Below, piece by piece: positions 356 through 31,183 of a DNA stretch of 38,288 nucleotides. Source of the stretch: Pseudomonadota bacterium. Its GTDB lineage: Bacteria; Desulfobacterota; JAZDOA01. The position numbers and the translations under genes are program-made. The notes below the pieces were generated by a model that ran no database searches, was not told the origin of the DNA, and worked only from the letters and a program-made list of their open reading frames with translations. Location: assembly GCA_043799175.1 (NCBI GenBank), contig JAZDOA010000151.1, forward strand, positions 1 to 38,288. Reading direction: 5' to 3'. Each line of letters opens with the position of its first letter. Position 1 is the first letter of the stretch.

Positions 356-2203
356 ATGAGCGAAGGGAAGAGGGAGAAGGTCGCCAAGACCTCGCCAGAC
401 ATAGTTGCGGAGCGCATCGAAGCGCTGCGGGAGATGTTCCCCGAGGCCGTCAGCGAGGGCAAGGTCGATTTCGACAGGCTCCGGGCCGCCCTGGGCGACA
501 AGGTGGATGACCGGCCTGAGCGCTACTCCTTCTCATGGGCAGGCAAGCGCGACGCCATCCGCCTGCTGCAGGTGCCCAGCCGGGCCACACTGGTCCCCGC
601 CCCCGAGGAGTCAGTCAACTTCAGCGCCACCGGCCACGTTTTCATCGAGGGCGAGAACCTGGAGGTGCTAAAACTCCTCTACAAGGCCTACGCCGGCCGG
701 GTGAAGATGATCTACATCGACCCGCCCTACAACACCGGCAACGACTTCATCTACCCCGACAACTTCGCCGACCCGCTGGACACCTACCTGAAGCTCACCG
801 GCCAGAAGGACAGCAACGGTAACCTGCTCACTTCCAACCCCGAGAAGAACGGGCGGTTTCACTCCGCCTGGCTGTCGATGATGTATCCGAGGCTTTTCCT
901 GACCAGGCAACTGTTGAGGGAGGACGGGGTAATCTTTATTAGCATTGATGACAATGAAGTGCACAACCTTCGTATTGCAATGAACGAAGTGTTCGGAGAA
1001 GAGAACTTTGTCGCTCAGTTGATTTGGAAATCGAGACAAAGCGAGGACACACGAGCCAAGACGGGCGTTTCTACAGACCACGAATACATCGTATGTTACC
1101 GTAAGTCTGATGCAGGCACTCTACGTGGCACGGAAAAGGATTTGGAGAAATTCTCAAACCCGGACAATGACCCACGCGGACCGTGGCGGAGCGCTGATCT
1201 TACCGGCCTTGCCACACGCGACCGGCGACCAAACCTGCATTATGATCTTGTAGACCCCAACGCTAAGAGAATCTATGAATGTCCCCCAAAAGGATGGCGC
1301 TTTGATCCCAGTACCATGAAGAAGAAAATAGAGGAAAAGCGCATTCTGTTTCCATCGAATGGGACAGGGCGACCTCGTCATAAGCTATTCTTAAACGAAA
1401 TGAAAAGTAATTATAAGAACTTTTCTTCTGTATTGTTGGAACCTACAACGGCCGATGGCACTAGAGAGATAAATTGTCTTCTGGAAAATGGGATATTCGG
1501 TTTCCCAAAGCCCTCAGCATTACTGAAGTTGTTAGTACAGCAAGCACCATCTGATAACGATCTCGTCCTCGATTTTTTCGCTGGTTCTTGCACCACGGCT
1601 CAGGCCGTCCTGGAACTTAACCGCGAGGACGGTGGTAATCGCCGTTTCATCATGGTGCAGTTACCCGAGCCCACCGACAGGGAGGACTTTTCCACGATTG
1701 CCGAGATTGGCAAGGAGCGCATCCGCCGGGTTATCGCCAACATGAAGGTGGAGGACGAAGATAAGCTGGCCCTCCAGACTCGCGACGTGCCTGAAGACCT
1801 GGGTTTTGCCGTCTTCAAATTGGCCGAAAGCAACTATCGCCAGTGGGCAGGCGTGGAGGGCAACGACCCCGAGCGCTACGCCGAGGAAATGGCGCTGTTC
1901 GTTGATCCGCTTCTGCTCGGCTGGAGGCCCGAAAACGTCATCTGGGAGGTTGCCCTCAAGGAGGGCTACAGCCTGACGGCCCGCATCGAGCCGGTGGCCG
2001 GGATCAAAGGCAACGTGGTTCACCTTGTCACAGATTCCGACAAGGACCAGAGCTTCCGCATCTGCCTGGACAGCGAGCTAAAACCCGAAACAATCCAGGC
2101 CCTGGGCCTCACCAAGGACGACTTCTTCATCTGCCGCGACGTGGCTTTGACGGACGAACTGGCCGCCAATCTGGCCCTTCAGTGCCGCTTGAAGACGATC
2201 TGA
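356..2203 (+). CDS. mod: Type III restriction-modification system, Mod subunit (N6-adenine DNA methyltransferase)
   Basis: 626-aa ORF (track 323..2203). It contains the beta-class N6-adenine/N4-cytosine methyltransferase motif IV '[15 protein letters not shown]', and a downstream AdoMet-binding-like '[12 protein letters not shown]'. It lies immediately upstream of a Type III Res gene. ATG 356 has an AGAGGT Shine-Dalgarno sequence 7 nt upstream; GTG 323 is an alternative start. Confidence 0.85.
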
Positions 2204-2214
2204 GGGAGGAAGCA

Positions 2215-2517
2215 ATGGGACGGGCGCGAATCGCGATTCCAAAGGAGCGGGTTGCCGAGTTCTGCCGCAAGCACCACATCCGCAGGCTGGCCCTCTTCGG
2301 CTCCGTGCTGCGCGAGGATTTTGGCCCCGGCAGCGACGTGGACGTGCTGGTGGAGTTCGAGCCTGAGCACATACCGGGGCTGGCCTTCTTCAGCATGGAG
2401 GCCGAGCTGTCCAAGATTCTCGGGCACAAGGTGGACCTGAACACGCCGCAGTTCCTGAGCCGCTACTTCCGGGAGGCGGTCTTGGGTGAGGCGGAGGTGC
2501 AGTATGTCGCGGCGTGA
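2215..2517 (+). CDS. MNT-type minimal nucleotidyltransferase (HepT/MNT antitoxin component)
   Basis: 100-aa product with the nucleotidyltransferase signature '[22 protein letters not shown]' (GSx9-13DxD). A GGGAGGA Shine-Dalgarno sequence sits 4 nt before ATG 2215, 12 nt after the mod stop. The gene overlaps the downstream HepT-like ORF. Confidence 0.8.
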
Positions 2518-2692
2518 CGACCTGGTCCGGCTGCCGGGCGTTGCCTGGCCCCAGATAGTCAGCCTGCGCAACCGGCTCATCCACGGCTACGACTCGGTGG
2601 ACATGGACATCCTCTGGCAAATCCTCCAGCAAGACATACCCACCCTCATAGCCGAGATGGAGAAGGCTGTTTCCACGGAGCCCGAGGGCTGA
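2504..2692 (+). CDS. HepT-like (DUF86) toxin fragment, N-terminally truncated (62-68 aa)
   Basis: Contains the HepT catalytic RX4HXY motif 'LRNRLIHGY' followed by a '[15 protein letters not shown]' helix, i.e. the C-terminal half of a HepT. A stop codon at 2456-2458 in this frame means at most 68 aa (GTG 2486) or 62 aa (ATG 2504) are encoded, so the N-terminal half of a normal ~110-130 aa HepT is absent. Its TGA stop (2690-2692) overlaps the Res ATG (2692) by 1 nt. Confidence 0.5.
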
Positions 2693-5370
2693 TGCGCTTC
2701 AAGTTCGACGCCAACCAGGAGTATCAAATCCAGGCCATCGAGGCCGTGGCAAGCCTCTTCGAGGGCCAGCCGCGCATCGAGGTTGACCTGACCTTCGGCC
2801 CTGGCGGCTTCGCCGTGGCCAACCGGCTGGAGATGGCGCGGGACGATCTTCTCAAGAATCTACAGGCCGTCCAGGTTCAGGACTCCATCCCGCCGGACAG
2901 CGCCCTGGCCTGCATCGAGGAGACAATCGAGACGGCCGAGGGAGAGAAGGCGGTCAGTTTCCCGAACTTCTCAGTGGAAATGGAGACGGGCACCGGGAAG
3001 ACCTACGTCTATATCCGCAGCGCCCTGGAGCTATTCCGCCGCTACGGTTTCCGCAAGTTCATTATCGTCGTGCCCTCGGTGGCCGTGCGGGAAGGCGTGA
3101 TAAAGACGCTGAACATCACCCGGGGCCACCTGGCCGAGCTATACGGCAACCTGCCCTATCGCTTCCACGTCTACGACTCGGGCAACCTCTCCCAGGTGCG
3201 CCAGTTCGCCCTCTCGGGCGCGGTGGAGCTGATGGTCATGACCATCGACTCCTTCAACAAGGCCTCGAACGTCATCCGCCAGACAACCGACCGCCTGCAG
3301 GGCGAGACCCCCATCCACCTTGTTCAGACGACTCGCCCTATCCTCATCCTCGACGAGCCGCAAAACATGGAGAGCGAGGCGCGGGTGAAGGCCCTCTCGG
3401 CCCTCGATCCGCTCTTCGCCCTGCGCTACAGCGCCACCCACCGTAATCCCTACAACGTCGTCTATCGGCTTACCCCCCACGAGGCCTACCGCCAGGGGCT
3501 GGTAAAACGCATCGAGGTGGCCTCGGTGACGAAGGAGGACGACGCGAACCAAGCCTTCGTGCGGGTCGAGAGCATCGGCTCCGAGAAGAACACCGTCACC
3601 GCTCGCGTCGCCTTGCACAAGCTCATGAGAAACGGGACGGTTAAAGAGACGGTGCTAAAGGTGCGGCTGGGCGACTCGCTGGCGGAAAAGGCCGAACGGA
3701 CTGAATACAGCGGCTTTGAAGTGGACGAGATAAATCCTGGCGGCGGGTTCGTGCGCTTCGCCAACAACGTCGAAGTGAGGGTCGGGCAGGCCCTGGGGGC
3801 GGACAAGGAAGCCATATTCGAGACCCAGATCGCTTACACAATCGGGGAGCACTTCCGCAAACAGGCACGGCTTAAGGATGCCGGAATAAAGGTCCTGTCG
3901 CTGTTCTTCATCGACAAGGTGGATAACTATGCCGCCGAGGATGGGGTAATCAGGCGGCTCTTCGTCAGGGCATTCGACCAGGCAAAGATGGGGTATGCCG
4001 AATGGAAGGATAAAGACGCGGCTACCATCCAGGCGGCGTACTTTGCCCAGCAGCGCCGCCGCAGCGGGGCGGTGGACATGCTCGAATCGACGGGCAAGAC
4101 GAAGCAGGACGAGGCTGCCTTCAACCTGATCATGAAGGACAAGGAACGGTTGCTTTCGTTCGAGGAGCCGGTGGCCTTCATCTTCTCCCATTCGGCCCTG
4201 CGCGAGGGCTGGGACAGCCCCAACGTCTTCCAGATTTGCACCCTGAATCAGACCGCCTCGGAGGTAAAAAAGCGGCAGGAGGTGGGCCGAGGGATGCGCT
4301 TGGCCATTGACCAGACCGGCGGCCGGGTAAGGGACGAGAAGACCAACGTCCTGACCGTCGTGGCCAACGAGAGCTACGAGCGTTATGTGGCGGGCTTGCA
4401 GTCGGAGCTTGAGGCCGAGTATGGCCAGGAGGGCCTGCCGCCCAAGCCGGCCAATGCCCGCCAGCGGGGCACGGCCAAGCTGAAGCAATTCATGCTCAAG
4501 CCAGAGTTCAAAGAGCTTTGGGAGCGCATCAAGCATAAGACCCGCTACGCGGTGACGATAGACACCGAGAAGGTGCTCCGGGAAGTGGTGCCCGCAATCG
4601 AGAAGGCGGAAATCCGCCCGCCCCGCATCAGCGTGACCAAGGTGCGGGTCGAAGTCGGCCCCGAGGAGGGCCTCAAGGCTCTGCGGGTGAGCGGCGGCAA
4701 GACGGCCCTGACCCTGGCCGGCCGGTACCCCCTTCCCAATCTCCTTGAAACCATGGTCAACCTCATGGAGCACACTACCCCGCCCGTCCGCATGACGCGG
4801 GCCACGCTCCTGGATCTGTTCAAGCGGACGGCCAACAAGGCGGCGGCCACGGCCAACCCTCATGAATTCGCCACCGTGGCCGTTCGGGTGCTCAAGGAGA
4901 AGCTGGCCGACGAGCTGGTGAACGGCATTCAGTACGAAAAGCTCAACCAATGGTACGAGATGACCCAGCTTGAGACTGAAATACCAAGCTGGATGGAATA
5001 CCTGGTCCCGGCGGAGCGCTCACTCTACGACCATGTTGTCTTCGAGTCCGAAGTGGAGAGGGAGTTTGTGCGGGGGCTTGAGAGCCGCGACGACGTGCGT
5101 CTCTACGTGAAGCTGCCCCGGTGGTTCAAGGTGTCAACCCCGGTCGGCGAGTATAACCCTGATTGGGCCATCGTTATGGAAGACCGGGACGCCCATGGGG
5201 AACCCACCGGCAAACCGCTCCTCTACCTGGTGCGGGAAACCAAGGGCAAAAACTGGCAGACCGACCTGCGCCCGGACGAGCGCCGCAAGATTCACTGCGG
5301 CGAGCGCCACTTCGCTGGGGCGCTCGGGGTGGGCTACAAGGTGGTTACGAAGGCGAGCGAACTACCGTAG
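2692..5370 (+). CDS. res: Type III restriction enzyme, Res subunit (SF2 helicase plus C-terminal PD-(D/E)xK endonuclease)
   Basis: 892-aa ORF. The N-terminus '[19 protein letters not shown]' is typical of Type III Res. It has a Walker A-like 'METGTGKTYV' and a DEAH-type motif II 'LILDEPQNM', with a helicase C region. The C-terminal nuclease motif is 'YNPDWAIVMED...LYLVRETKGKN' (PD...ExK). Confidence 0.85.
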   Translation: MRFKFDANQEYQIQAIEAVASLFEGQPRIEVDLTFGPGGFAVANRLEMARDDLLKNLQAVQVQDSIPPDSALACIEETIETAEGEKAVSFPNFSVEMETGTGKTYVYIRSALELFRRYGFRKFIIVVPSVAVREGVIKTLNITRGHLAELYGNLPYRFHVYDSGNLSQVRQFALSGAVELMVMTIDSFNKASNVIRQTTDRLQGETPIHLVQTTRPILILDEPQNMESEARVKALSALDPLFALRYSATHRNPYNVVYRLTPHEAYRQGLVKRIEVASVTKEDDANQAFVRVESIGSEKNTVTARVALHKLMRNGTVKETVLKVRLGDSLAEKAERTEYSGFEVDEINPGGGFVRFANNVEVRVGQALGADKEAIFETQIAYTIGEHFRKQARLKDAGIKVLSLFFIDKVDNYAAEDGVIRRLFVRAFDQAKMGYAEWKDKDAATIQAAYFAQQRRRSGAVDMLESTGKTKQDEAAFNLIMKDKERLLSFEEPVAFIFSHSALREGWDSPNVFQICTLNQTASEVKKRQEVGRGMRLAIDQTGGRVRDEKTNVLTVVANESYERYVAGLQSELEAEYGQEGLPPKPANARQRGTAKLKQFMLKPEFKELWERIKHKTRYAVTIDTEKVLREVVPAIEKAEIRPPRISVTKVRVEVGPEEGLKALRVSGGKTALTLAGRYPLPNLLETMVNLMEHTTPPVRMTRATLLDLFKRTANKAAATANPHEFATVAVRVLKEKLADELVNGIQYEKLNQWYEMTQLETEIPSWMEYLVPAERSLYDHVVFESEVEREFVRGLESRDDVRLYVKLPRWFKVSTPVGEYNPDWAIVMEDRDAHGEPTGKPLLYLVRETKGKNWQTDLRPDERRKIHCGERHFAGALGVGYKVVTKASELP

Positions 5371-5588
5371 GACACTGGCCGGAACGTGCGCCCGGTTCTC
5401 TCAAAGAAGTCCGCGGCACATTCGGCGCCCGCAAAAAACGGCCCTGCCGCCGTGGCGGTATTGTCTCCACGCACGTGGGGGTGAACCGAAAGAGGAAAAG
5501 CCCTAACGAATAGAAGGGGAAGAGAAAATAGAACAGACTTTTGCCAGGCGTTTCTACGCCTTGCCCGCACTTGTCTAGGCCGCGTCAA

Positions 5589-5619: not shown

Positions 5620-5645
5620 GTACAGTTTGTTTGGCGGGAGGGTCG

Positions 5646-7580
5646 ATGTCCTTAGCTGGTCTGCTCCAATACTCCTGGACGATACTCGGGATTTCTGCTC
5701 CATGGTTCGCCTGGGTAGCAGCCCCAGCCATCTTCCTTCCCGTCGCTTATCTGCTTTGGAAGCTTCGGGACAGGACTCTGACCGCCGGACAACGCTGCTC
5801 GCAGTTCGCAACCAAGCTGGATGAAGTTCGGAGTCGCAGTGCCCGGAGGCCGGGCACTGGGCTGTCAGGCGAGGAGATGGAGGCCATAACACAGGTCTTC
5901 CTTGACAACGAAAGTTTCAAGGAACCCTGGCAAAGATACGAAGCGACCTCGATCATTCGCCTTACTCACGACGGCGCCGATTCCTTCTGGGCCGCCGAAA
6001 GTGCCGCCGATGCCTTCGATGAACACTCGCTCTTCGATGAGGGCATCAACAAGCAATTCTATCAAGCGGTCCCTGGGCTGGCCACAAGCGTGGGCCTCTT
6101 CTTCACCTTCTTGGCCATCCTGGTGGCCCTGATGGAGGTCCGCTCCGATGGTATCAAGGTTGCGGGGTTGTCGGGGCTGATCAACGGGCTTTCAGGCAAA
6201 TTCCTTACCTCCGTCGCCGCCCTGCTTGCGGCATCCATCTATCTGCTGGCCGAAAAACCCGTCTGGCACAGACTGACTCTAGCCCACCGTTCCCTGATCG
6301 ACGCCATCGACCGGAGCGTGCCGCGCCTCACCCCTACCCGCCTGCTCGCCAACCTCGACCGGCAGATGACGGAGCAGACCAACGCCTTCCACAGCTTCAA
6401 CACCAGCTTGGCTATCAAACTGCAGGAAAGCTTCAGCACGAGCATCGGACCCACCCTGGAGCGGATGGTCGAGTCCATTGAAGGCCTCAATCAATTTCTC
6501 AAACAAGCCGAATTGGCCCGCCAAGAAACGACCACTGGGGAAATCAAGCGGCTGCTCACGGACGTGGAACAATCCATGTCCGCTACCCTGGCGAGCATGG
6601 GGAAGCAGTTCTCGGATTCCCTCTCCGGCGACGTGCGGGGGCAGTTCAACGGCATTATCGAATCACTGGATAAATCAGCCTCCGTTATTGACAAGATGAA
6701 CAGCCAGTTGGAAGGCACGCAGGAGGCCATGAAGGCCATAGCGCAGTTGGCGAAGGAGTCCACGCTGGAGCAAATCAGTCAGGGTAGGAAACAGTCTCAG
6801 GACGTCGCCGAAGTGCTGACCGCATTGATGACCCAAATGAAGGAGGCAACCGGAGTCTCGGCCAACAACATGCTTTCGGCCATGGCTGTGGCCACGGAAA
6901 GCCTGGCTCAGAAGGTGGACTACATAAGCGACCGGATGTCTCAGCTCATCCAGGAGAGTACCGGCCAAGTCAACAAGACGGCCACGGAGGTCATTGAAAA
7001 ATCGGACCAGGTTTCAGAAGCCAACATGCGTCGCCTCACCGCGCTGCTGGAAAGGTTGGATAATCACGCCGACCAGACTGCGCGTTTGAAGCTGCTGCTC
7101 GACGAGGCCATGGGCAATCTCACCAAGGTCCTGGTCCAATACGCGGAGATCAGCAAAGATATTTTCGGCGCGACATCCAACTTCAGCCTGACGGCCAACT
7201 ATCTGAAGGGTATATCCTCCGAGGTGAAAGACACCCAGACATCTATTCGCGAGGTCTCGGAGCTCTCCGCCCGCCAGGTGGACAGGCTTGAAACGGCGTG
7301 GAAGCATGTTGACGTGACGACATCCGCAATTTCAAACTCGATGAATGACTATCAAAGGGTGTTTGATGTCGTTAAGGGTTCCTCGCAGAGCCTACTGGAT
7401 ACTATCGCGACTCATATGAATCAGTACTCTGATACCACCCGAAACCACTTTGACAGCTTGGTATCCGTGGCCAATGGACACATGACCGAAGCGGTCGGCA
7501 AACTTCGCAACATAATTGGGGAACTTGACGAGAGCATCAGTGATCTCAGTGATGCATTGTTGAAGGTTCCCAGGCGTTAG
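5646..7580 (+). CDS. zorA: ZorA (Zorya type I; MotA/ExbB-like proton-channel protein with long C-terminal coiled-coil tail)
   Basis: N-terminal TM helices. MotA/ExbB/TolQ-like channel region 'QFYQAVPGLATSVGLFFTFLAILVALMEV...GLSGLINGLSGKFLTSVAALLAASIYL'. About 420 aa of low-complexity heptad-like sequence follow, rich in Q/E/L/S, matching the ZorA tail. ATG 5646 follows a GGGAGGG Shine-Dalgarno sequence; the track ORF begins at TTG 5631. It is the first gene of a four-gene cluster. Confidence 0.7.
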   Translation: MSLAGLLQYSWTILGISAPWFAWVAAPAIFLPVAYLLWKLRDRTLTAGQRCSQFATKLDEVRSRSARRPGTGLSGEEMEAITQVFLDNESFKEPWQRYEATSIIRLTHDGADSFWAAESAADAFDEHSLFDEGINKQFYQAVPGLATSVGLFFTFLAILVALMEVRSDGIKVAGLSGLINGLSGKFLTSVAALLAASIYLLAEKPVWHRLTLAHRSLIDAIDRSVPRLTPTRLLANLDRQMTEQTNAFHSFNTSLAIKLQESFSTSIGPTLERMVESIEGLNQFLKQAELARQETTTGEIKRLLTDVEQSMSATLASMGKQFSDSLSGDVRGQFNGIIESLDKSASVIDKMNSQLEGTQEAMKAIAQLAKESTLEQISQGRKQSQDVAEVLTALMTQMKEATGVSANNMLSAMAVATESLAQKVDYISDRMSQLIQESTGQVNKTATEVIEKSDQVSEANMRRLTALLERLDNHADQTARLKLLLDEAMGNLTKVLVQYAEISKDIFGATSNFSLTANYLKGISSEVKDTQTSIREVSELSARQVDRLETAWKHVDVTTSAISNSMNDYQRVFDVVKGSSQSLLDTIATHMNQYSDTTRNHFDSLVSVANGHMTEAVGKLRNIIGELDESISDLSDALLKVPRR

Positions 7581-7582
7581 TC

Positions 7583-8236
7583 ATGGCTGGTGGCGATCAT
7601 AACTCGGGACTGGCGAATTCCTTCACAGATCTCATGACTTCCCTGGCGGTCATATTCATCCTGCTGTTGTGCGCCTCGCTCAACAACGCACAACAGGAGG
7701 GACAGAACGTCAGGGCCGCCATCATCGCGGACTTGCAACGCGAACTGCAATCGTTCTTCAAGCAAGGGGTGGAGGTCAAGAAAGACCCGCGCGACCCCCT
7801 GGGACTCATCGTGCTCGTGCCGGAAGGGCTGTTGCAGTTTGCCTTGAACGATGACAACATTCCCCAAGAAGGCAGGCGGTTCCTCAACGCATTTATCCCC
7901 AAGCTCGCCTCGACCATGCTTTCTCCAAGGTTTAGAGATGACATCAATTCCGTAGTAGTAGAGGGACATACCGACTCTTCCGGCACCGATGCAATCAATC
8001 TGCCATTGAGCCAGCGCCGCTCGCTGTCCGTGGTCATGGAGAGCCTCGGAGTGCTCGACGGAGACGCCCGAATGTGTTTCCTCAAGCTGCTTTCCGCAAG
8101 CGGCAGGGGCAGCATGGAGCCGTTCATCGACACCAAAACCGGGCATGAAGACATGGGCAAGAGCCGGCGGGTCTTTTTCAAGATAAGGGTTCGCTCCCTG
8201 GAGCAGAAGACAATCTATAAGTATATTGACTCATAA
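7583..8236 (+). CDS. zorB: ZorB (MotB-like; N-terminal TM helix plus OmpA-family peptidoglycan-binding domain)
   Basis: 217-aa ORF starting 3 nt after the zorA stop. TM helix 'LMTSLAVIFILLLCASL'. OmpA-like core 'VVVEGHTDSSGTDAINLPLSQRRSLSVV' (GHTD...G...N..LS..RA pattern). Confidence 0.75.
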   Translation: MAGGDHNSGLANSFTDLMTSLAVIFILLLCASLNNAQQEGQNVRAAIIADLQRELQSFFKQGVEVKKDPRDPLGLIVLVPEGLLQFALNDDNIPQEGRRFLNAFIPKLASTMLSPRFRDDINSVVVEGHTDSSGTDAINLPLSQRRSLSVVMESLGVLDGDARMCFLKLLSASGRGSMEPFIDTKTGHEDMGKSRRVFFKIRVRSLEQKTIYKYIDS

Positions 8237-8255
8237 AGCTTCTTAGGGGCCATGC

Positions 8256-9623
8256 ATGATCAGCCTTGAGACCTTCCGTCAGACCGAACAACTATTGAGG
8301 GCCAACCTGAAAGACCTCTCACCCGAGACTATTGCTAACTGGCCGACGACGCCCGAGACGCGGCTGAAAGACCTGGCGGCCGTGGTCGCCAGTCTCGACG
8401 TCTTGGGAATGCCTTCCCGTCCTCCCCGCACGCCCGATTATTACCTGCGGGAGTGGGCAGACTACATCGGCGGCCGCCATGACCTCAGTCCAGCCGCCTT
8501 TCGCCACCTGTGCTGGGAACCGGACGTGGCCACCTCGGAACCCTTCCTGTTATGCCTTCAGGCCGACAGCAAGAGGGTTTTGTCCCGCAAAGGGCTGCGA
8601 GGACTGGCATACAGCATCCACGCCTTGTGGTCGAAGCGCGGGTCATTGGGCGATTCCGTAAAGCTGATACGGCAGTTCCTGCGCGATTATGCGGGCTTTG
8701 ACACGGCCATCAACAAGTGGCGGACAAACATCGACTCGCTCTTCGACCTTGAGGCCCACCACGCGCTGGCCGCCCGGCTGCTGGAACAGGGCCAGAAACC
8801 AGACGCCTTCTTTCGCGAGCATTCTCTGTTCCCTTACACCGAGTTCTATTGGGCGGTGCTGCAGGCGGCCATAACCAATTCCCTCGAAGCCATGAGGCGC
8901 GCTTTTTTTTGGCACACCCACCGGTTGCCATCTCTGCTTGAGTACTGCCTGGATCTCCTCTCCGAGGAAGAGCTTCCAACCGCACTTTTCAAGAATACAA
9001 TTGCCCAGATCATCCTAAGCCCGGCGATGGAAAACCAACCTCTGGCCGACCGCGTCAAGGAATACGTACTGGATCATAAAAAGTTGGGCGACCCGCGCCT
9101 TCGGCATAACGGCATACATTGGGCCGGAATTGATGAGGCCGCCAAGGACAAGATTGTCCAATGGCTCTCCAGGGCAGACATCATCTTCTTTTTCGAGCAT
9201 GTCATGCAGCGGGGAGAGGACCGCCACGGCCGGAAGGACTTCTGGCTAAGATACGAAAAGAAGTTCCGGAACACCAGATGCCTTCTCTCCCCCAATGACA
9301 AAGCCCGGTTGAGTTCCGTATTCCATCGGCGTGAATCTCGAATAGAGGGTTACGGGAGCGTGCGCGGTGGCCTTAACCAAAGCGCCTTCCTGCTGGACTT
9401 TGGCTCGGTACTGGCCATCGAGTTTCACAAGGTTGGGGCATGCTACGTCTATAAGCGTCCTGCCCTTCCAGACGTACTGCAAAGCGGCTTGAGAAGTTCG
9501 GAGCACTTCTGGGAAGGGGAACTGAAGGACCAAGATGCCGCTGCTGACCGCATTGTTCATCGCCATGGTTGGCAGGAAAAGATGGCTCAGTGTCTCGCCA
9601 GGCACCAGATCTGGGCCGGATGA
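8256..9623 (+). CDS. zorC: ZorC (EH-signature-domain protein of type I Zorya)
   Basis: 455-aa ORF sitting between the MotAB-like pair and the SNF2 protein, as in type I Zorya. It contains Glu-His dipeptides in conserved-looking contexts ('FFREHSLFPY', 'FFEHVMQRGEDRHG'). It has no other recognisable catalytic motif, so the assignment rests mainly on synteny. Confidence 0.5.
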   Translation: MISLETFRQTEQLLRANLKDLSPETIANWPTTPETRLKDLAAVVASLDVLGMPSRPPRTPDYYLREWADYIGGRHDLSPAAFRHLCWEPDVATSEPFLLCLQADSKRVLSRKGLRGLAYSIHALWSKRGSLGDSVKLIRQFLRDYAGFDTAINKWRTNIDSLFDLEAHHALAARLLEQGQKPDAFFREHSLFPYTEFYWAVLQAAITNSLEAMRRAFFWHTHRLPSLLEYCLDLLSEEELPTALFKNTIAQIILSPAMENQPLADRVKEYVLDHKKLGDPRLRHNGIHWAGIDEAAKDKIVQWLSRADIIFFFEHVMQRGEDRHGRKDFWLRYEKKFRNTRCLLSPNDKARLSSVFHRRESRIEGYGSVRGGLNQSAFLLDFGSVLAIEFHKVGACYVYKRPALPDVLQSGLRSSEHFWEGELKDQDAAADRIVHRHGWQEKMAQCLARHQIWAG

Positions 9624-12600
9624 AGAAGATGGCTTTTCAGCACGATACAAGCTCTCATATTCTGGTTTTGGACCGGCCTGCCCCAGGAGTAGAGGTGCAG
9701 GCCCACTCCGATGCCCTGCGCCTGGTTTCGGCCACCTGTGATTTCGGAGACCGTGACCAGCTTGCGGCTCTTTCCGCGTCGTCACGGACTCATCTTGGCC
9801 GTTCACTCCAGTTTCTCCTGCCGCAGATCCTCGAACTGGGCCGGGCCAACCTGGAAGAGGCCGGCCGCATAGCCATCCCCTACAGCGACCTCTACATCCT
9901 TGAGGATGAAGGCCTGCGAGCCTTCGAGCCGTTGGCCGCTTGGGCACCATTCATGGTGGAACTCTCCTCGACCGGGTCGGTGGGAACTTCTTCTTTCCGT
10001 TACATTTGCCGCCTCTACGTAGGGGCCAGGCAAGTCTTCCCTCGACGCGTGGGGGCATTCGTGGATCTTCAAGGACGCCTCTTGCGACTCGACCGCTCCA
10101 GCTACGCGTTGATCGAGGCGGTGGAGGAAGCCAACAGCCTGCCCGCAGCCGAAAGAAACGCGACAGATGCCCTTCGCAGTTTGGCCCAGATAAGAGGCTT
10201 GGCGGAGGAGATCGGCGTCCAGCTCGACCGTTACCTCGCCCAGGAGCGAGTGATCATTCCCGCTGAGGTTGGAGTCGGTATCGAGGAAGATCATAAGGGA
10301 CGCATCTCCTTCGTTCCTCAGATCGACGGAGTGCCCGATGACGCGTTGAAGCGCGACTTCCTCGCCCGTGACGACACGGGCGTCTATTCCCTCACCCATC
10401 CTGACGGAGGCCAGCTGCGGGTTGTCTTGGGACCCAAGCAAAGAGAGGCGCTTAACAGAATGCGCTGGGTCCGCTTGCTTTCCGGGGAAGCCAAAGCCCG
10501 CGTGCTGGCCAACCCGGCCGCCACCTTCGAGGGACTCCTCGATGATGTCATCCGTATGGACGGCCTAGGGCCGAGAGTCAAAGACATTGGCAACTTCCCC
10601 TTCATTGTCCGTCCCCGCATTTCTTACGGCGTTCTCGACGGCATCCTGGGGAGCGCGCAGCCGCAGCACAAGTTGCCGCGCGCTGGCCTGGAAATCGTCT
10701 CAGTTGACGCCTCCACCGGCGAAAGACACACGGAACACGTCGACTTTGCCAACGAGAAGGAACGTCAGGAATTCACTCAGCAGGTGAAGGACGCCGCACG
10801 GACGGGACAAGGCTGTGTCCAGTTTCGAGACCTGACCGTGCAGGTGGAACCCGAACTCCTCAAGGGACTCGATGAATTGGAGCAGCGGCTAGCTCGGCCA
10901 CCACGTGGTCTCAAGGAGGAGCAGGAGGATCAAGGCCGCTATCTGCTGATCTACACGAACGAGGAGGAAGTCGACTATCCCGGGCAGGGAGAAGGAGAAG
11001 CGCCAGGGCCAGTACCCTCCGCCCCCATCTTCGAGCCTCCGCAGGCTCTGCTGGACACTGATACTCTCACCAAATACCAGCAAGCAGGAATCGCCTGGCT
11101 ACAACTTAACTATCGGCTCAAGGGCCGGCGGGGATGCTTGTTGGCCGACGACATGGGTCTGGGCAAGACTCTTCAGATCCTCAACTTCGTGGCTTGGCTG
11201 ATTGAGCAGGGCTCTCTCCTGGAGAAGCCAGGGGACGCCTCAGAACTCCCGCCCTGGAATCCAGTGCTCGTTGTGGCGCCGGTCATGCTGCTCGAGGTGA
11301 AAACCTGGGTCAAAGACATGCAGTGTTTCTTCCGGCATGAAGGCAATGTATTCCAGCCATACCTGGTTCTACATGGACAAGAACTTCAACGGCTGCGCCA
11401 AGACGGGGTCCGTGGCCGGGAAACCCAGCTGGGTGAGCCAATCCTCGACCTGGAGAAGTTGCGTAGCCATCGCGTCGTTCTCACGAACTACGAAACCGTG
11501 GTTAACTACCAACATTCGTTGGCTCGCATCAAGTGGGCAGCCGTCGTGACCGACGAGGCGCAGGAGTTCAAGACGCCCAGCACCAAAATCTCTCATGCTC
11601 TGAAGAGCCTCGATCCTCGCTTCCGCGTGGCCCTTACGGGCACCCCCGTGGAGACCCGTCTTTTGGATGTCTGGAACATATTCGACTTTCTCCAGCCAGG
11701 CCATCTGCGCAGCGCCAAGGAATTCTGCGATGACTACGAAAGACATCTGGAGGATGATAGCGCGTGCTCCGACGCGCTGAACAGGCTAAAGAAGAGTCTG
11801 GCGCATGGGGAGCCTGACGCCTTCATTCTGAGACGCAATAAAACAGAGTTGAAGGATCTGCCTCCCAAACATGAGCACGAGATCTACTGCCAGCTCTCCG
11901 ACATCCAGCGCCAGCACCACCTCGACCTCGTCCGTCAGGCCGGCACGGGAGCCAGTCATCATTTCAGTCTGCTCAGCAGCCTGATGTTCCTCTATCAGCA
12001 TCCTGATTTGGAGTTATCGAGGGATAGGATGCTCGACCTTCCTGCACAGACGCTGGTGGACCGGTGCCCGAAGCTGTCGGCCACCATTGAAGTCTTATCG
12101 AAGATACGGCGTGCCCGTGAAAAAGCGCTCATTTTCACCCGCAGCATCGTCATGCAACAGGCCATAGCCAAGGTTCTTGGGGAGACATTCGGCCTCAATA
12201 TCGACATCATAAATGGGGCCACCAAGCGCCACAGCCCCCGCGCCAGCGTCGCGACGCGCGAACAAATACTCCAAAGATTCCGTGAGCATGTCGGCTTTCA
12301 CGTCCTCGTGCTCTCACCCGAGGTAGCTGGTTTGGGCCTGACTATTGTCGAGGCAAATCACGTCATCCATTATGGCCGCTGGTGGAATCCGGCCAAAGAA
12401 TCACAGGCGACCGACAGGGTTTATCGCATCGGCCAGAAAAAGGATGTACACGTCTACTACCCAATTGCCCAAGACCCACTTGGGCAGTTCAAGACTTTCG
12501 ATGAAAAGCTCGACGACTTGCTCAAACGCCGGCGCCAATTGGCCACCGACTTCTTGATGCCCATTCCGGATGAGGAGCGCCTGAGCAGGGAACTGGCCGA

Positions 12601-13120
12601 AGGAATTCTGTGCGAGCATGAAGGAGATCGGGGCGAGGTCAGGCCCCTCAATATGCACGACATCCCCGACCTTGCCTGGGATAGGTTTGAGGCTTTGGTG
12701 GGGCTGCTTGAGCACAAGCAGGGGCGCCAAGTCATACTGACCCCGCGGGCGGGAGACCAGGGCATAGATGTCATTGCCGCGGACGGCAACGATGTAAGGC
12801 TTATCCAGTGCAAGCACACTGCTGGCTACAATATTCACGACGAAAGCGTAGCCGAGACTATCGAGGCATTCGACGGCTACCGCGCGAGGTACCTGCGCGG
12901 CAAGAGTCCCTGCAAGCTAATCCTCTCCACCAATGGCGGCTTCACGGAGAGCGCTGGCTCCATGGCGTACCTACGCGGCGTTCAGCTTGTTCCAGGCGCT
13001 GATCTGGAGCGGCTGCTTGATGCTTATCCGGTCACTTTCGCCGAAATCGAGACATTCGCCCAACGCCGTTGCAAGACCATGAAAGAGGTGCGTGCGGCCA
13101 TTCAGGGCTGGCGGCTTTGA
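9620..13120 (+). CDS. zorD: ZorD (SNF2-family ATPase with C-terminal Mrr-like PD-(D/E)xK nuclease domain)
   Basis: SNF2 motif I 'LLADDMGLGKTLQ', motif II 'VVTDEAQEFK' (DEAQ box), and a helicase C region 'ALIFTRSIVMQ...GLGLTIVEANHVIHYGRWWNPAKESQATDRVYRIGQ'. The C-terminal ~130 aa 'VILTPRAGDQGIDVIAADGNDVRLIQCKHTAGY' resembles the Mrr catalytic (type IV restriction) fold. ATG 9620 overlaps the zorC TGA as ATGA; the track ORF begins at 9569. Confidence 0.75.
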   Translation: MKKMAFQHDTSSHILVLDRPAPGVEVQAHSDALRLVSATCDFGDRDQLAALSASSRTHLGRSLQFLLPQILELGRANLEEAGRIAIPYSDLYILEDEGLRAFEPLAAWAPFMVELSSTGSVGTSSFRYICRLYVGARQVFPRRVGAFVDLQGRLLRLDRSSYALIEAVEEANSLPAAERNATDALRSLAQIRGLAEEIGVQLDRYLAQERVIIPAEVGVGIEEDHKGRISFVPQIDGVPDDALKRDFLARDDTGVYSLTHPDGGQLRVVLGPKQREALNRMRWVRLLSGEAKARVLANPAATFEGLLDDVIRMDGLGPRVKDIGNFPFIVRPRISYGVLDGILGSAQPQHKLPRAGLEIVSVDASTGERHTEHVDFANEKERQEFTQQVKDAARTGQGCVQFRDLTVQVEPELLKGLDELEQRLARPPRGLKEEQEDQGRYLLIYTNEEEVDYPGQGEGEAPGPVPSAPIFEPPQALLDTDTLTKYQQAGIAWLQLNYRLKGRRGCLLADDMGLGKTLQILNFVAWLIEQGSLLEKPGDASELPPWNPVLVVAPVMLLEVKTWVKDMQCFFRHEGNVFQPYLVLHGQELQRLRQDGVRGRETQLGEPILDLEKLRSHRVVLTNYETVVNYQHSLARIKWAAVVTDEAQEFKTPSTKISHALKSLDPRFRVALTGTPVETRLLDVWNIFDFLQPGHLRSAKEFCDDYERHLEDDSACSDALNRLKKSLAHGEPDAFILRRNKTELKDLPPKHEHEIYCQLSDIQRQHHLDLVRQAGTGASHHFSLLSSLMFLYQHPDLELSRDRMLDLPAQTLVDRCPKLSATIEVLSKIRRAREKALIFTRSIVMQQAIAKVLGETFGLNIDIINGATKRHSPRASVATREQILQRFREHVGFHVLVLSPEVAGLGLTIVEANHVIHYGRWWNPAKESQATDRVYRIGQKKDVHVYYPIAQDPLGQFKTFDEKLDDLLKRRRQLATDFLMPIPDEERLSRELAEGILCEHEGDRGEVRPLNMHDIPDLAWDRFEALVGLLEHKQGRQVILTPRAGDQGIDVIAADGNDVRLIQCKHTAGYNIHDESVAETIEAFDGYRARYLRGKSPCKLILSTNGGFTESAGSMAYLRGVQLVPGADLERLLDAYPVTFAEIETFAQRRCKTMKEVRAAIQGWRL

Positions 13121-13377: not shown

Positions 13378-13492
13378 CCGCACCACCGGAGTGGGCACCG
13401 GCCCCGTAGAATTGCCGCAACCCGAGGACCGGATCTGGTATGTTCCTTGTGAGCTGCAAAATGCCACTTATGTCCGCACACCTGGAGGAATC

Positions 13493-15508
13493 ATGCTGGA
13501 TCTGTTTTATGCTCACCTGACACTGGTCAGCACCGTCGCGACCGGCCTCGTGATTCTCGGCTATTATTCGATCGTCATCGTCTCCGGCAGGGAACTGGCG
13601 GTGCTGGAACGGCGCTGGTGCGGCAGACAGATGCCGCAGGGGCGCGTCGTGGCCATGGGAGACGAGGTCGGCATCCAGGCCCGGACCCTGGGCCCCGGCC
13701 TGCACTTTCTGCTACCCTTCGTCTACGCGGCGCGAAAGTACCCCTTCGCCGAGATCAAGGACGGCGAGATCGGCATCGTGGAGTCTATCGACGGCAACCC
13801 CATCCCGCCGGGTCGGATTTTTGCCCAGGTGGTGGAGGGACACAACGCCTTTCAAGACGGCGAGGTCTTCCTGAAGAACGGCGGCCAGAAAGGCCCCCAG
13901 ATCCAGATCCTTTCCCCAGGGAAGTACCGGATCAACCCCTACCAGTTCAACGTCACCAATGGGGAGGCGGTCGTCGTCGACAAGGGTAAGGTGGGTGTCG
14001 TCGCCGCCATGGACGGCAAGAGCATACCCGCCGGGAGGCTCCTGGGGCAGCGCGTCGCCGAGCACTCCAATTTCGAGAACGGCCAGGCCTTTATCGAGAA
14101 CGGCGGGCAGAAGGGGCCGCAGATCGACATCCTGCAGCCGGGGACCTACCGCATCAACCTAAACCAGTTCGAGGTGGAGATCCACGACGCCACGGTAATC
14201 CCGGCCAACAACGTCGGCCTGGTGACCGCCCTCGACGGCAATCCGCTCCCGGAAACGGAGTACATCGCCAAGTCGGTCTCCGGCCACGAGGACTACCAGG
14301 ACGCCCAAAAATTTCTCTTCGCCGGCGGCCAGCGCGGGCCACAGCTCAACATGCTGCGGCCGGGCACGTACTACATCAATCCCCTCATGTTCAAGGTGGA
14401 GCTCGACGACGTCACCGTGGTGGAACGGGGCCAAGTGGCGGTGGTCATCTCCAACGTGGGGGAAGAGCCGACCGCGGAAATGAAGCGGCGCCTGAGCGCC
14501 TCCCAGACCAATACGCTGACCGAAGAGGAGGCCAGGGAGCGGTACGTGGTTCCCGAGGGGTACCGCGGCATCCAGGAGGAGGTGGCCGGCCCTGGACGCT
14601 ACTACCTCAACAAGCGGGCCTTCATCCCGTACATCATTGACACCACCAACATCACCATAGACTGGGACAGCGCGGCGGACACCCGCTTCGATCCTCTCAA
14701 GGTGATCTCCAAGGACGGCTTCCCGATTGACGTTTCGGTCAAGGTCGTGGTCCGCGTCCGGCCGGATCAGGCCCCGTACATGGTCGCCAAGGTCGGCTCC
14801 GCGGAGAACCTCATCCTCCACGTCATCCACCCCATGATAGACTCCTCGTTCCGCAACCAGGCCTCGTCCACCTCGGCCATGAACTTTCTGCAGAACCGCC
14901 AGGAAGAGCAGGTCCGCGCCGAAGACCGGGCCCGTGCCAGCCTGGAGAAGTACCACGTGGAGTGCGTATCCGTCCTCATCTGCCAAATCAACCTGCCCCA
15001 GGACCTGATGGAGACCCAGACCAGGCGGATCATCGCCGAGCAGCAGAAGGAGATGTTCGCCATGCAGCAGGAGGCCGAGGCGGCCAGAATCTCCACCGAA
15101 AAGACCCGCGCCACCGCCGACCAGCAGGGTGAGCTGGTCAAGGCCGAGATCGGGGTGAAGGTCGCCGACCAACAGAAGCAGAAGACCATCGTCCTGGCGC
15201 AGGGGGATGCCGAGGGGATACGGCTGCGCGGCGAGGGCGAGGCGAGGAAGATCGAGGCCATCGGCCAGGCAACCGCCCAGGCCTACCGGGAGCAGAATGC
15301 CGCCCTTGGTCAGGAGGCGATTACCGCCATCGAGGTGATGAAGAAAGTCGCCGAGGGCAATATCCGCATCACCCCCGATATTCTCGTCGCCGGCGAAAAC
15401 GGGGGCCTCCTCGACGTGCTGCTGGCCCAGTTAGTCAAGAAGGGTTCTCTGCCGGATGCGGTTGAACCCGGCAGGCACTGCAAGGCAAGGGTGATGGAGG
15501 CGGAGTGA
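13493..15508 (+). CDS. Flotillin/SPFH (band-7) family membrane protein with N-terminal tandem ~73-aa repeats
   Basis: GGAGG Shine-Dalgarno sequence then ATG 13493; TM helix 'LTLVSTVATGLVILGYYSIVIV'. Three clear plus one degenerate repeat unit '...G(V/I)V..DG.(P/S)IP.GR.....V.(G/E)H..F..G..F..NGGQ(K/R)GPQ...L.PG.Y.IN...F.V'. The SPFH core is '...KVISKDGFPIDVSVKVVVRV...HVIHPMIDSSFRNQASS'. A flotillin-type EA-rich coiled-coil C-terminus follows: 'QQKEMFAMQQEAEAARISTEKTRATADQQ...'. Confidence 0.7.
   Translation: MLDLFYAHLTLVSTVATGLVILGYYSIVIVSGRELAVLERRWCGRQMPQGRVVAMGDEVGIQARTLGPGLHFLLPFVYAARKYPFAEIKDGEIGIVESIDGNPIPPGRIFAQVVEGHNAFQDGEVFLKNGGQKGPQIQILSPGKYRINPYQFNVTNGEAVVVDKGKVGVVAAMDGKSIPAGRLLGQRVAEHSNFENGQAFIENGGQKGPQIDILQPGTYRINLNQFEVEIHDATVIPANNVGLVTALDGNPLPETEYIAKSVSGHEDYQDAQKFLFAGGQRGPQLNMLRPGTYYINPLMFKVELDDVTVVERGQVAVVISNVGEEPTAEMKRRLSASQTNTLTEEEARERYVVPEGYRGIQEEVAGPGRYYLNKRAFIPYIIDTTNITIDWDSAADTRFDPLKVISKDGFPIDVSVKVVVRVRPDQAPYMVAKVGSAENLILHVIHPMIDSSFRNQASSTSAMNFLQNRQEEQVRAEDRARASLEKYHVECVSVLICQINLPQDLMETQTRRIIAEQQKEMFAMQQEAEAARISTEKTRATADQQGELVKAEIGVKVADQQKQKTIVLAQGDAEGIRLRGEGEARKIEAIGQATAQAYREQNAALGQEAITAIEVMKKVAEGNIRITPDILVAGENGGLLDVLLAQLVKKGSLPDAVEPGRHCKARVMEAE
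13748..14410 (+). repeat. Tandem intragenic coding repeats (about 3 x 220 nt) inside the SPFH gene
   Basis: Three units are visible in the translation: 'GEIGIVESIDGNPIPPGR...NGGQKGPQIQILSPGKYRINPYQFNV', 'GKVGVVAAMDGKSIPAGR...NGGQKGPQIDILQPGTYRINLNQFEV', and 'NNVGLVTALDGNPLPETE...AGGQRGPQLNMLRPGTYYINPLMFKV'. Coordinates are approximate. Confidence 0.55.
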
Positions 15509-22597: not shown

Positions 22598-23401
22598 GTG
22601 GAGCCTGACCGAGTGGACAACATAATCCAGTTCTCGCTGGCCACGGCGCGCTGCGTCCATGACGACGACAAGATGCTCCAGGACCTGGGGCCAATCCATC
22701 TGATCAAGTATGTGTACCTGGCCGACCTGGCATATGCCGAGAAGCATGGTAGAACCTATACTGAAACCAATTGGGTATTTCACCACTTCGGCCCATGGGC
22801 CGCCGAGGTTTATCAGCGTCTCGACCTAGCGACACAGGCTATCCATGCGGATAAGAAGCAGATCGAAAGCCGCTATAGTGAGGATTTCACCCGTTGGCGT
22901 CTCGATAACTACGAAGACGCCGTTCGTGTAAGAGAAGAGCATTCCAAGAACTTGCCTTTTGAGATTACAAGCGTCGTTCAACACGCCGTGAAGGAATATG
23001 GCAATGCAACAACTGACCTTCTTCACGACGTCTATCTCACATTTCCGATGTTACACGCAGCGCCTGGCGACGAGCTGGACTTCCGCAGCGTGCAGGAAAG
23101 ACCTGAGCCTGAGCCACCTGCTGCTGAGCCTGTACAGGTCAGCCGGAACGCAATGAAGAAGCGCAAGCAGCGCCTGGAAGAAGCACGCCGCCGCTTCGCC
23201 CAAAAGGCTGCCGAACGTTCACGCGAGAAGGCGGCAAGGAGGGCAGCTCAGGCCCCCCCGCGCTACGATGATGTTTTCGATGAGGGAACACGGGTTCTCG
23301 ATGAGCTTGCAGGCCCGCCGCTTGAGGTTCAAGACGGAATTCTGGAATTCAGCGACGAGATATGGAAGTCACCGATACGCACGGGTGAGGATGACGGGTA
23401 A
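22598..23401 (+). CDS. Panacea-domain (DUF4065, SocA/PanA-like) putative antitoxin with charged low-complexity C-terminal region
   Basis: The N-terminal ~130 aa 'NIIQFSLATARCV...PIHLIKYVYLADLAYAEKHGRTYTETNWVFHHFGPWAAEVYQRL' fits the Panacea consensus (..LKLQKLLY.A......G......F.A...GPV...vY). The C-terminal half is a K/R/E/A-rich linker-like sequence. GTG start. Confidence 0.55.
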   Translation: MEPDRVDNIIQFSLATARCVHDDDKMLQDLGPIHLIKYVYLADLAYAEKHGRTYTETNWVFHHFGPWAAEVYQRLDLATQAIHADKKQIESRYSEDFTRWRLDNYEDAVRVREEHSKNLPFEITSVVQHAVKEYGNATTDLLHDVYLTFPMLHAAPGDELDFRSVQERPEPEPPAAEPVQVSRNAMKKRKQRLEEARRRFAQKAAERSREKAARRAAQAPPRYDDVFDEGTRVLDELAGPPLEVQDGILEFSDEIWKSPIRTGEDDG

Positions 23402-23410
23402 CTGCCACAG

Positions 23411-24103
23411 GTGAACACGATCCAGGACCTGGTAGATCCATGGTGGGAGGTTGCCGAGCCAGCCAAGCTTCAGGCTGGTCGCCTTGCGAGGACTTTTGTG
23501 CCCGTCCCGGACGTTGTTACCCGTGGGGTGGTCCTGGAGGGTCGCGAAGACGCCCGTAATCACACCACTGCAAGGTTCAGGGTCGAGCCCATTCAGGCAG
23601 GTCGGTCACCAAGCTTGTCATCACTACCCGTTGCGGCGCTACCTGCGCACCCTGGGGAGTCCTATATCGCCCAACGAGGAAAGAGGCGACCTGTGCTCAT
23701 TCTCTCCATGGGCGGCTTGGAGATTCCGAAAGCCGTGTCTCACGGTGGGCCTGGGTACCAGCGAAAGCCGTGCGTGCTTGTAGTGCCTTTTTATGGCGGA
23801 GACCAGGACGGCAGCAGAGCTGGCTTCTCGCCGGAATTCGTGGAGCGCATCAAACGGATAGAGTATCCGCAGTATATCGCCGACACGCTACCCCTCGGCA
23901 ACCTAGCCATGTCCATCATGCGGCTTGACCACGTCTTGGCAGTCGGATGCGCTCCAAGCAATTTTGAGCTGATGCCGCACCGGCTGAGTAACGATGCCTT
24001 GGAACTGGTCCTGGATTGGTTCCGTTGGCTGGTTGAGGGGTCTCTCCCAACCGGAAGTCTTCTTGAGTGGGCTCGTTCCGAGCTGATGAAGATGAATGCA
24101 TAA
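23411..24103 (+). CDS. Uncharacterised 230-aa protein coupled to the Panacea gene; possible MazF/PemK-like (SH3-barrel) toxin fold
   Basis: Starts 10 nt after the Panacea gene stop, with a GTG start. Segments 'GRLARTFVPVPD', 'KRRPVLILS', 'CVLVVPFYGG' and 'SIMRLDHV' are spaced like MazF/PemK strands ('GdIwlVdfdP', 'khRPalVlS', 'vvvvPiTs'), with a ~50-aa insertion. This is a weak by-eye similarity only. Confidence 0.35.
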   Translation: MNTIQDLVDPWWEVAEPAKLQAGRLARTFVPVPDVVTRGVVLEGREDARNHTTARFRVEPIQAGRSPSLSSLPVAALPAHPGESYIAQRGKRRPVLILSMGGLEIPKAVSHGGPGYQRKPCVLVVPFYGGDQDGSRAGFSPEFVERIKRIEYPQYIADTLPLGNLAMSIMRLDHVLAVGCAPSNFELMPHRLSNDALELVLDWFRWLVEGSLPTGSLLEWARSELMKMNA

Positions 24104-30875: not shown

Positions 30876-31183
30876 GGCCACCAGCCCGTCCCGCCGGCAA
30901 GGCGGTGGGAGGCCACCCCAAGTCACTCAAGGCATTGTTGACTCCGGGGCGGACAAAACTTAGACTTGCGTTGCCCCGGCAGCATCAAGCCGGGCAGGGG
31001 TGGGTCCGCAACGGCGCGGCCGCCCACTCCTTCAAGAAAATACCCGCAACGACGCGGGTCCAATGCGTTACTGCTCGCAACGAGGCGGGCGATACATCAG
31101 CCTCGCCCCGCACGGCCGCGGAAATACTTCCAGGCAACGCCGCACTTCTTTTGGGGCGGCGTTCATCAGGAGCAGTGACGCCA

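Follow-up and report, generated by a model that had tools for sequence, protein, structure and literature searches.

The 38,288-nt stretch of DNA analyzed here (the window; positions 1 to 38,288 of contig JAZDOA010000151.1, assembly GCA_043799175.1, from a Pseudomonadota bacterium) carries a restriction–modification (R-M) operon of Type III in which two small open reading frames (ORFs) lie between the methyltransferase gene mod and the restriction gene res. The first ORF encodes a minimal nucleotidyltransferase (MNT) of the MntA antitoxin type, and the second encodes a remnant of a HepT RNase toxin. Here, we propose that the two ORFs are a type VII toxin–antitoxin cassette captured in a mod–res slot that related operons have used recurrently, and that the toxin was later lost by a 162-nt in-frame deletion; we assign this explanation a probability of about 0.7. 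An earlier sequence-only reading of the locus had taken the pair for a HepT/MNT toxin–antitoxin module, and it overlooked both the truncation of the toxin and the repeated use of the mod–res gap by unrelated cargo.

The truncation was recognized by profile matches and by alignments with nine intact relatives, whose HepTs are 111–120 residues long. The product of the second ORF (68 residues if the GTG at 2486 is taken as the alternative start) matched PF01934 at 8e-14, only at profile positions 75–119 of 120, and the NCBIfam HepT_toxin profile only at positions 84–117 of 120, with a score under the equivalog cut-off. It lacks 54 internal residues of ~116, and the description of the pair as an intact module therefore did not stand. 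At the deletion site, an intact relative (L167) reads DDLVRL[RHMLDH...ARNRH]AGIAWPQ, and the DNA flanking the 162-nt deletion is otherwise collinear with the relatives. A repeat-mediated deletion was considered and rejected, because the ends share microhomology of at most 1–3 nt and the 12-nt repeat CTGGTCCGCCTG within intact hepT predicts another junction. The remnant retains the RX4HXY motif. A profile of the intact relatives finds solved HepT toxins and maps the RX4HXY stretch to residues 91–121 of Shewanella oneidensis HepT (PDB IDs: 6M6U and 5YEP); the remnant alone gave no match in the PDB. The helices ahead of the motif are absent from the remnant. In HEPN toxins, the catalytic helix depends on the helical bundle and on the dimer. 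Because the bundle is missing, the remnant probably has neither RNase nor toxic activity. Regarding the hallmarks of HepT/MntA pairs, the window has an MNT with GSX10DXD, the HepT RX4HXY, and an antitoxin gene directly upstream of and overlapping the toxin gene, but not a complete HEPN/HepT domain, which is a helical bundle of about 110–135 residues. The 62-residue protein was found once among 5.8 billion clustered proteins, on this contig; the annotation there assigns it to DUF86, in a Pseudomonadota metagenome-assembled genome. A conserved “mini-HepT” family was also dismissed, as the genes called in database entries of ~61 residues proved to be the 3′ halves of broken hepT genes (L171 and L174).

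The MNT gene is intact. Its 100-residue product aligns over the full length with relatives and matched PF01909 (2.5e-13), PF18765, the PADLOC candidate model PDC-S09 (1e-26), and PDB 1WOT (2.9e-07); the match to NCBIfam MntA_antitoxin (2e-10) was under the curated cut-off. The GSX10DXD motif, which MntA uses to AMPylate HepT (motif definition from PMC7641770), is the same as in the free-standing relative L081, and the ratio of non-synonymous to synonymous substitution rates (dN/dS) against relatives is 0.05–0.17. An exact-sequence look-up with the window MNT returned no match, and the clustered protein database contains the protein as P0001.

The order mod, MNT, HepT-like ORF, and res, all on the + strand, was confirmed by the ORF calls and profile matches as the sequence-only reading had given it. 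The mod stop codon (TGA, 2201–2203) is separated from the MNT ATG at 2215 by the spacer gggaggaagca, which is 11 nt and not 12 nt as first reported. Its length resembles the 1–12-nt mod–res spacers of uninterrupted relatives, and a near-identical junction is present in the related locus L084. The other two junctions agree with the overlap and the 1-nt overlap originally described. The HepT ATG at 2504 starts 14 nt inside MNT (stop codon 2515–2517), and the remnant TGA (2690–2692) and the res ATG (2692–2694) share one A (TGATG). A GAGGG sequence sits 3 nt 5′ of the res ATG, and every downstream start in the operon has its own Shine–Dalgarno-like purine run. The coupled translation of all four ORFs claimed earlier was not confirmed; such coupling may be suggested by the spacing, from which alone it was read, and each start is separately provided with a purine run. 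A consensus scan of the + strand of the mod–res interval found no terminator-like site, and the hairpin 3′ of res (Table 1) is likely the operon end. A scan for internal promoters returned one weak sigma-70-like match (2067–2094), which was not above shuffled sequence. By eye, a TTGACG (260–265) followed by a 16–17-nt spacer and CATAAAT was found about 70 nt 5′ of the mod start (260–288, + strand), and it is a possible candidate for the operon promoter. The consensus scan did not report this pair because the second hexamer fails its rules.

The two host genes appear to be complete. Mod matched PF01555 (7.7e-35) and PADLOC MTase_III PDLC03634 (4.3e-185; residues 7–609 on profile positions 3–609 of 621), its translation contains DPPY and FAGS motifs, and no simple-sequence repeat suggesting phase variation was seen in the gene. 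Res matched PADLOC REase_III (3.2e-241), PF04851 (3.2e-11; ResIII helicase), and PF19778 (4.1e-35; C-terminal endonuclease domain), and its residues 1–892 align full length to 160 relatives. The match to NCBIfam NF012027 (1.7e-85; 287.8 bits) was under the 564-bit equivalog cut-off, and by these scores the window Res is judged to be a relative of the EcoP-type Res and not an equivalog. With a full-length Mod, a Res combining an SF2 helicase with a PD-(D/E)XK domain, and mod 5′ of res, the Type III system appears from its sequence to be otherwise ordinary.

The slot was recognized by comparison of 160 loci with Res relatives at 56–73% identity, taken from one-genome-per-species contigs and metagenomes and spanning many bacterial phyla and some archaea. 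No Res of more than 73% identity was found in the genome or metagenome scans, and the only close relative of the locus is L084. Of the 160 loci, 139 included the 3′ end of mod together with the 5′ end of res; gap estimates based on tblastn run about 3 nt above exact stop-to-start distances. In 84 of the 139 loci (60%), mod abuts res. Exact distances were obtained for the 83 loci with less than 40 nt: the spacer was 1–12 nt in 81 (mode 9 nt), and the other two had a 4-nt overlap and a 16-nt spacer, respectively. The gap was at least 72 nt in the other 55 loci (40%), and 48 of them (~35% of 139) contained ORFs.

This cargo was typed by clustering of the ORFs and Pfam scans of the cluster representatives, and it spans about 20 unrelated families. 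The most frequent were PD-(D/E)XK proteins of the PDDEXK_3 family (seven loci), intact MNT–HepT pairs (six loci: L001, L039, L086, L087, L104, and L112), an unassigned family of 190–241 residues (four loci), and DUF4160 (three loci). DUF559, PIN_12, RhuM, Schlafen/AlbA_2, DUF3800, an AAA_21 ATPase with a partner gene, and an extra methyltransferase occurred in two loci each. Single loci carried a nucleotidyltransferase–HEPN (PF05168) pair distinct from MNT–HepT, DUF6602, Bro-N, PLD, AAA_14/DUF4143, GmrSD, and a SMODS + Cap15 CBASS pair. Cargo without a Pfam match was found in several loci, including L054, L094, L123, L139, L140, and L108, and these ORFs could be candidates for new functions. 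Known defense genes occupy the slot in L091 (2223–3759), L147 (2099–3991), L163 (2915–3997), and L160 (2162–3649), comprising the SMODS + Cap15 CBASS pair, a GmrSD-like enzyme, PIN_12, and a Schlafen/AlbA_2 ATPase.

All Pfam-assigned cargo ORFs share the strand of mod and res. The first cargo gene usually starts 3–16 nt past the mod stop; start values of −22 arise where the first-start rule chooses an upstream codon inside mod, as in the window. The last cargo gene ends −4 to +9 nt from the res start in 29 of the 48 loci. At the 3′ end of mod about 42 nt, and at the 5′ end of res about 35 nt that encode MQFKFDANQEYQ, are conserved at the DNA level across phyla, and this conservation would allow cargo exchange by homologous recombination. 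The locus thus displays the attributes of embedding: nested co-oriented genes, relatives with no insert or with other inserts, and cargo homologues outside the host operon. Two further observations concern particular cargo. The PDDEXK_3 cargo (L049, 5531–6001; L011, 5246–6001) is flanked by short tandem and inverted repeats, with GCGCAGATT repeats 3′ of the mod stop and the complement 5′ of res in L049, which suggests that this cargo type is itself a small mobile element. In L063 (5839–5994), a 51-residue ORF just 5′ of res begins with MMAFRFDANHEFQ and partly duplicates the N-terminus of Res; it is possibly a scar left where cargo was inserted by recombination at the 5′ end of res.

The relatives of the cassette also bear on its origin. 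MNT relatives number thousands in the clustered protein database, and those at 82–87% identity that could be placed are free-standing MNT–HepT pairs with HepTs of 111–119 residues. They are located among housekeeping genes, 3′ of rodA and 5′ of ATP synthase genes (L081, L165, and L166), 3′ of a copper ATPase gene (L167), or 3′ of glmS (L169), and the 14-nt MNT/HepT overlap is also present in L081, L165, L167, and L169. The closest relative of the window MNT (P0002, 91% identity) is in L084, where it follows a Type III mod at a near-identical junction (…AAGACGATTTAGGGAGGGAGCAATGGG). The L084 contig stops 24 nt into hepT, and the gene reads DDLVRLRH, continuing beyond the deletion point of the window. 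Because L084 shares the junction and its hepT is undeleted at that point, the embedding appears to be older than the split between the two loci and the deletion to be derived. The mod DNA of L084 is 87–88% identical to that of the window at both ends, whereas the central target-recognition part is unalignable, and the overall amino acid identity is 61%; the region 1514–3809 of L084 looks like a target-recognition domain swap between otherwise near-identical Type III systems. A search for flanking repeats or a target-site duplication around the cassette gave only short matches of chance size.

The MNTs of the six other embedded pairs are 40–68% identical to the window MNT and 33–77% identical to each other. 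The embedded MNT–HepT loci occupy at least four places in the Res neighbor-joining tree, and the nearest Res relatives of L104 are without any insert. By these sequence comparisons, the embedded pairs are not one lineage and appear to be independent captures. The suggestion in the sequence-only reading that the cassette is the remnant of an insertion was therefore supported, since mod and res abut in 84 of 139 homologous loci, the nearest MNT relatives are free-standing, and the other embedded MNTs are this divergent. Damaged toxin genes were also observed elsewhere in the family. The hepT of L171 (440–790) has a nonsense codon and that of L174 (2200–2560) a frameshift, and the hepT of L168 (5285–5640) has an internal deletion removing the catalytic motif; an intact MNT lies upstream in all three. 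Toxin loss with the antitoxin kept is frequent in this family.

Here, we outline how the present arrangement may have arisen. A mobile type VII cassette, consisting of an MntA-type antitoxin and a HepT RNase toxin, would have entered the mod–res gap, which in this widespread Type III clade is a recurrent slot for co-oriented accessory genes. By the later in-frame deletion, the HEPN fold would have lost its N-terminal three quarters, to a point immediately ahead of the catalytic helix, leaving the 62-residue remnant. With this remnant presumably inactive, the pair would no longer be an addiction module. A promoter upstream of mod probably drives the four ORFs as a single transcript, and ribosomes ending the remnant at TGATG may reinitiate on res with the aid of the GAGGG Shine–Dalgarno sequence. 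Unlike a frameshifting deletion, an in-frame one would have preserved the remnant–res arrangement; in the other two frames, stops at 2515, 2556, or 2649 would end translation 40–175 nt short of the res start. The MNT would be an orphan antitoxin carried along, for which the neutralization of incoming HepT toxins is one possibility. More tentatively, and with somewhat less than even odds in our estimation, the cargo may be swapped by recombination across the ~40-bp flanks and co-translated with res, so that the operon would serve as an expression platform for second-line defenses. If so, the Type III operon would be a hunting ground for unknown defenses, and an in-frame toxin deletion would be a form of toxin loss that the architecture tolerates.

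Several points weigh against the captured-and-decayed cassette or against a strict link with res. The deletion is known from one metagenome-assembled contig, and we infer the loss of toxicity from missing sequence. The 40 retained C-terminal codons are 77–79% identical to the intact HepTs of L167 and L169, and their dN/dS against intact relatives is 0.09–0.26, compared with 0.06–0.37 for intact pairs. There is no positive sign of decay, and a recent deletion and a remnant still under constraint fit these values equally. A comparison aimed at relaxed selection on the remnant gave no such signal, as both measures lie inside the intact-pair range, which suggests only that the deletion is recent. 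A deletion has a one-in-three chance of being in frame in any case. Moreover, 19 of the 48 cargo loci (40%) have a gap of 19–934 nt before res, and a cargo gene is split in L023; because of these loose junctions and the split gene, res needs no strictly uninterrupted upstream frame. Tight cargo–res coupling is common, not obligatory. Within these limits, the remnant ORF may act as a translational bridge to res, and tuning of Res translation by the cassette is possible from the arrangement of the sequence.

The most serious competitor of the decayed-cassette explanation, although an unlikely one, is that the leftovers are kept for a function, with MNT acting alone, either in a PDC-S09-like defense or in anti-addiction against incoming HepT, and the remnant bridging translation to res. 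The full-length MNT keeps its catalytic motif and has a dN/dS of 0.05–0.17 against relatives, it matches PDC-S09, the in-frame deletion keeps TGATG where the other frames would stop upstream, the remnant has no non-synonymous excess, and tight cargo–res junctions are seen in 29 of 48 relatives. However, most of the purifying signal is older than the deletion, as the synonymous divergence (dS) of these comparisons is 0.6–2. The 62-residue form was seen once, the junctions of 19 of the 48 relatives are loose and one cargo gene is split, and the accessible parts of the embedding literature contain no experimental support for PDC-S09 activity. An assembly artefact, with an intact hepT in the real locus, is considerably less probable still. 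The deletion was observed in one contig with no second observation, and L084, the closest relative, shows no deletion at this point. Against this, no repeat liable to collapse in assembly borders the missing segment, the microhomology is no longer than 1–3 nt, the 12-nt repeat of the intact genes would give another junction, and the deletion is exactly in frame with collinear flanks.

Two readings that require an active toxin are the least probable of all. The sequence-only reading had suggested that the cassette could stabilize the locus, and an active HepT/MntA pair would do so by post-segregational killing. The gene order, the overlap, and both motifs of such a pair are present, and six related loci have intact pairs in this position. 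In the window, however, HepT is without 54 of ~116 residues and retains Pfam positions 75–119 of 120, while a type VII pair requires a folded HEPN RNase (PMC7641770), and 84 of 139 related systems persist insert-free. An active addiction module is thus unsupported for the window copy because its toxin is truncated. No more credible is a two-layer defense resembling PrrC, in which the HEPN RNase would be inactive during restriction and freed when a phage disables it. HEPN genes in R-M operons are a recognized pattern with this proposed logic (PMC3710099), and the six intact embedded pairs are tightly spliced. On the other side, the RNase of the window is truncated, the cassette supplies an antitoxin itself, the relatives closest to it operate outside R-M settings, and it lacks an ATPase sensor domain like that of PrrC and RloC. 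A PrrC/RloC-type architecture was rejected on the last point, as the Pfam scan found no ATPase domain in the 62-residue ORF. The truncation also makes anti-phage activity of the window copy unlikely.

The HepT/MntA pair of S. oneidensis (SO_3166/SO_3165; PDB IDs: 5YEP and 6M6U; PMC7641770) resembles the window pair in having MNT upstream of and overlapping HepT, and the window keeps both GSX10DXD and RX4HXY, including the tyrosine that is AMPylated in HepT (PMC7641770). It differs in that the window toxin is a remnant without the N-terminal helices, both NCBIfam equivalog scores are under the cut-offs, and the pair lies inside another operon instead of being free-standing. A study of Type I RM, BREX, DISARM, and Hma has described the embedding of genes in defense operons; in it, 96.7% of the embedded genes were co-oriented with the host, and the PDC candidate models originate from it, as given in the accessible parts of the study (bioRxiv 10.1101/2024.01.29.577857; PMC12988326). 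As far as those parts show, the Type III loci share with these systems nested co-oriented genes, diverse cargo at one position, and cargo that is mostly non-embedded elsewhere; known defense genes (GmrSD, CBASS, PIN, and Schlafen/AlbA_2) are among the Type III cargo, and the window MNT matches PDC-S09. In contrast, Type III RM is outside the systems analyzed in those parts, and here the host has two genes and a single slot, with cargo usually within about 10 nt of both neighbors. At least 16 HEPN clades are linked to R-M operons, and the EcoprrI Type Ic hsd locus houses the anticodon nuclease PrrC (Anantharaman et al. 2013, PMC3710099). PrrC likewise is a HEPN-superfamily RNase encoded within an R-M operon, but it is an ABC-ATPase–HEPN fusion regulated by the restriction enzyme itself, whereas the HEPN protein of the window is a minimal, truncated HepT with its own MNT antitoxin in a Type III host. 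Our literature searches, which are not proof of absence, found no description of cargo between Type III mod and res. The window feature is a decayed example of the known embedding habit of defense operons, and the seamless Type III slot seen across the clade extends the known phenomenon modestly.

The window copy alone, a decayed passenger cassette in an otherwise ordinary Type III system, matters little. What the comparison adds is that embedding also reaches a Type III operon, whose two genes offer a single junction, with high occupancy and unusually seamless splicing. The mod–res junction is a simple, defined position for mining new defense genes and a tractable case for a translational link between cargo and a restriction subunit. 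In addition, four independent examples of toxin loss with the antitoxin kept are added to the most abundant prokaryotic toxin–antitoxin family. The features of the operon and of the adjoining Zorya system are listed in Table 1.

Table 1. Positions of the operon and Zorya features in the window.
Feature	Positions	Strand	Basis or remark
mod, Type III DNA methyltransferase, 615 residues, apparently intact	356–2203	+	PF01555, PADLOC
mod–MNT spacer, 11 nt	2204–2214	+	Shine–Dalgarno-like GGGAGGA inside
MNT, MntA-type minimal nucleotidyltransferase, 100 residues, intact	2215–2517	+	Pfam, NCBIfam, PADLOC, PDB
GSX10DXD catalytic motif of MNT	2299–2343	+	Regular-expression match
HepT remnant, 62 residues (first 10 and last ~52 of the HepT RNase toxin)	2504–2692	+	PF01934
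Deletion junction (..DDLVRL / PGVAWPQ..)	between 2533 and 2534	+	162 nt = 54 codons absent, in frame
RX4HXY motif RNRLIHGY, RNase active-site and AMPylation-site helix	2567–2590	+	Remnant residues 22–29
res, Type III restriction endonuclease/helicase, 892 residues, apparently intact	2692–5370	+	PADLOC, Pfam, NCBIfam
Terminator-like hairpin and T-rich tail	5444–5468 (hairpin 5444–5458)	+	Consensus scan only
ZorA	5631–7580	+	Type I Zorya
ZorB	7583–8236	+	Type I Zorya
ZorC	8256–9623	+	Type I Zorya
ZorD	9569–13120	+	Type I Zorya; PADLOC 3e-210

A complete type I Zorya system (5631–13120, + strand) lies directly 3′ of res, which makes the Type III locus part of a defense island. A 705-residue SPFH/Band 7 protein (PF01145, 2.9e-26) is encoded 3′ of ZorD (13391–15508, + strand); it had no PADLOC match and might be a further member of the island. 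Farther downstream (22598–24103, + strand), a gene for a 267-residue protein that contains a SocA/Panacea antitoxin domain (PF13274, 6.6e-08) lies 10 nt ahead of an ORF of 230 residues, for which no Pfam or PADLOC match was found, and the two may be a Panacea-type toxin–antitoxin pair. On the − strand (26092–30926), the gene for an AAA_27/SMC-like ATPase (1169 residues) overlaps that for a calcineurin-like phosphoesterase (442 residues), an SbcCD/YhaNO-like arrangement; the G+C content of this region is about 70%, compared with 53–63% in the defense island.

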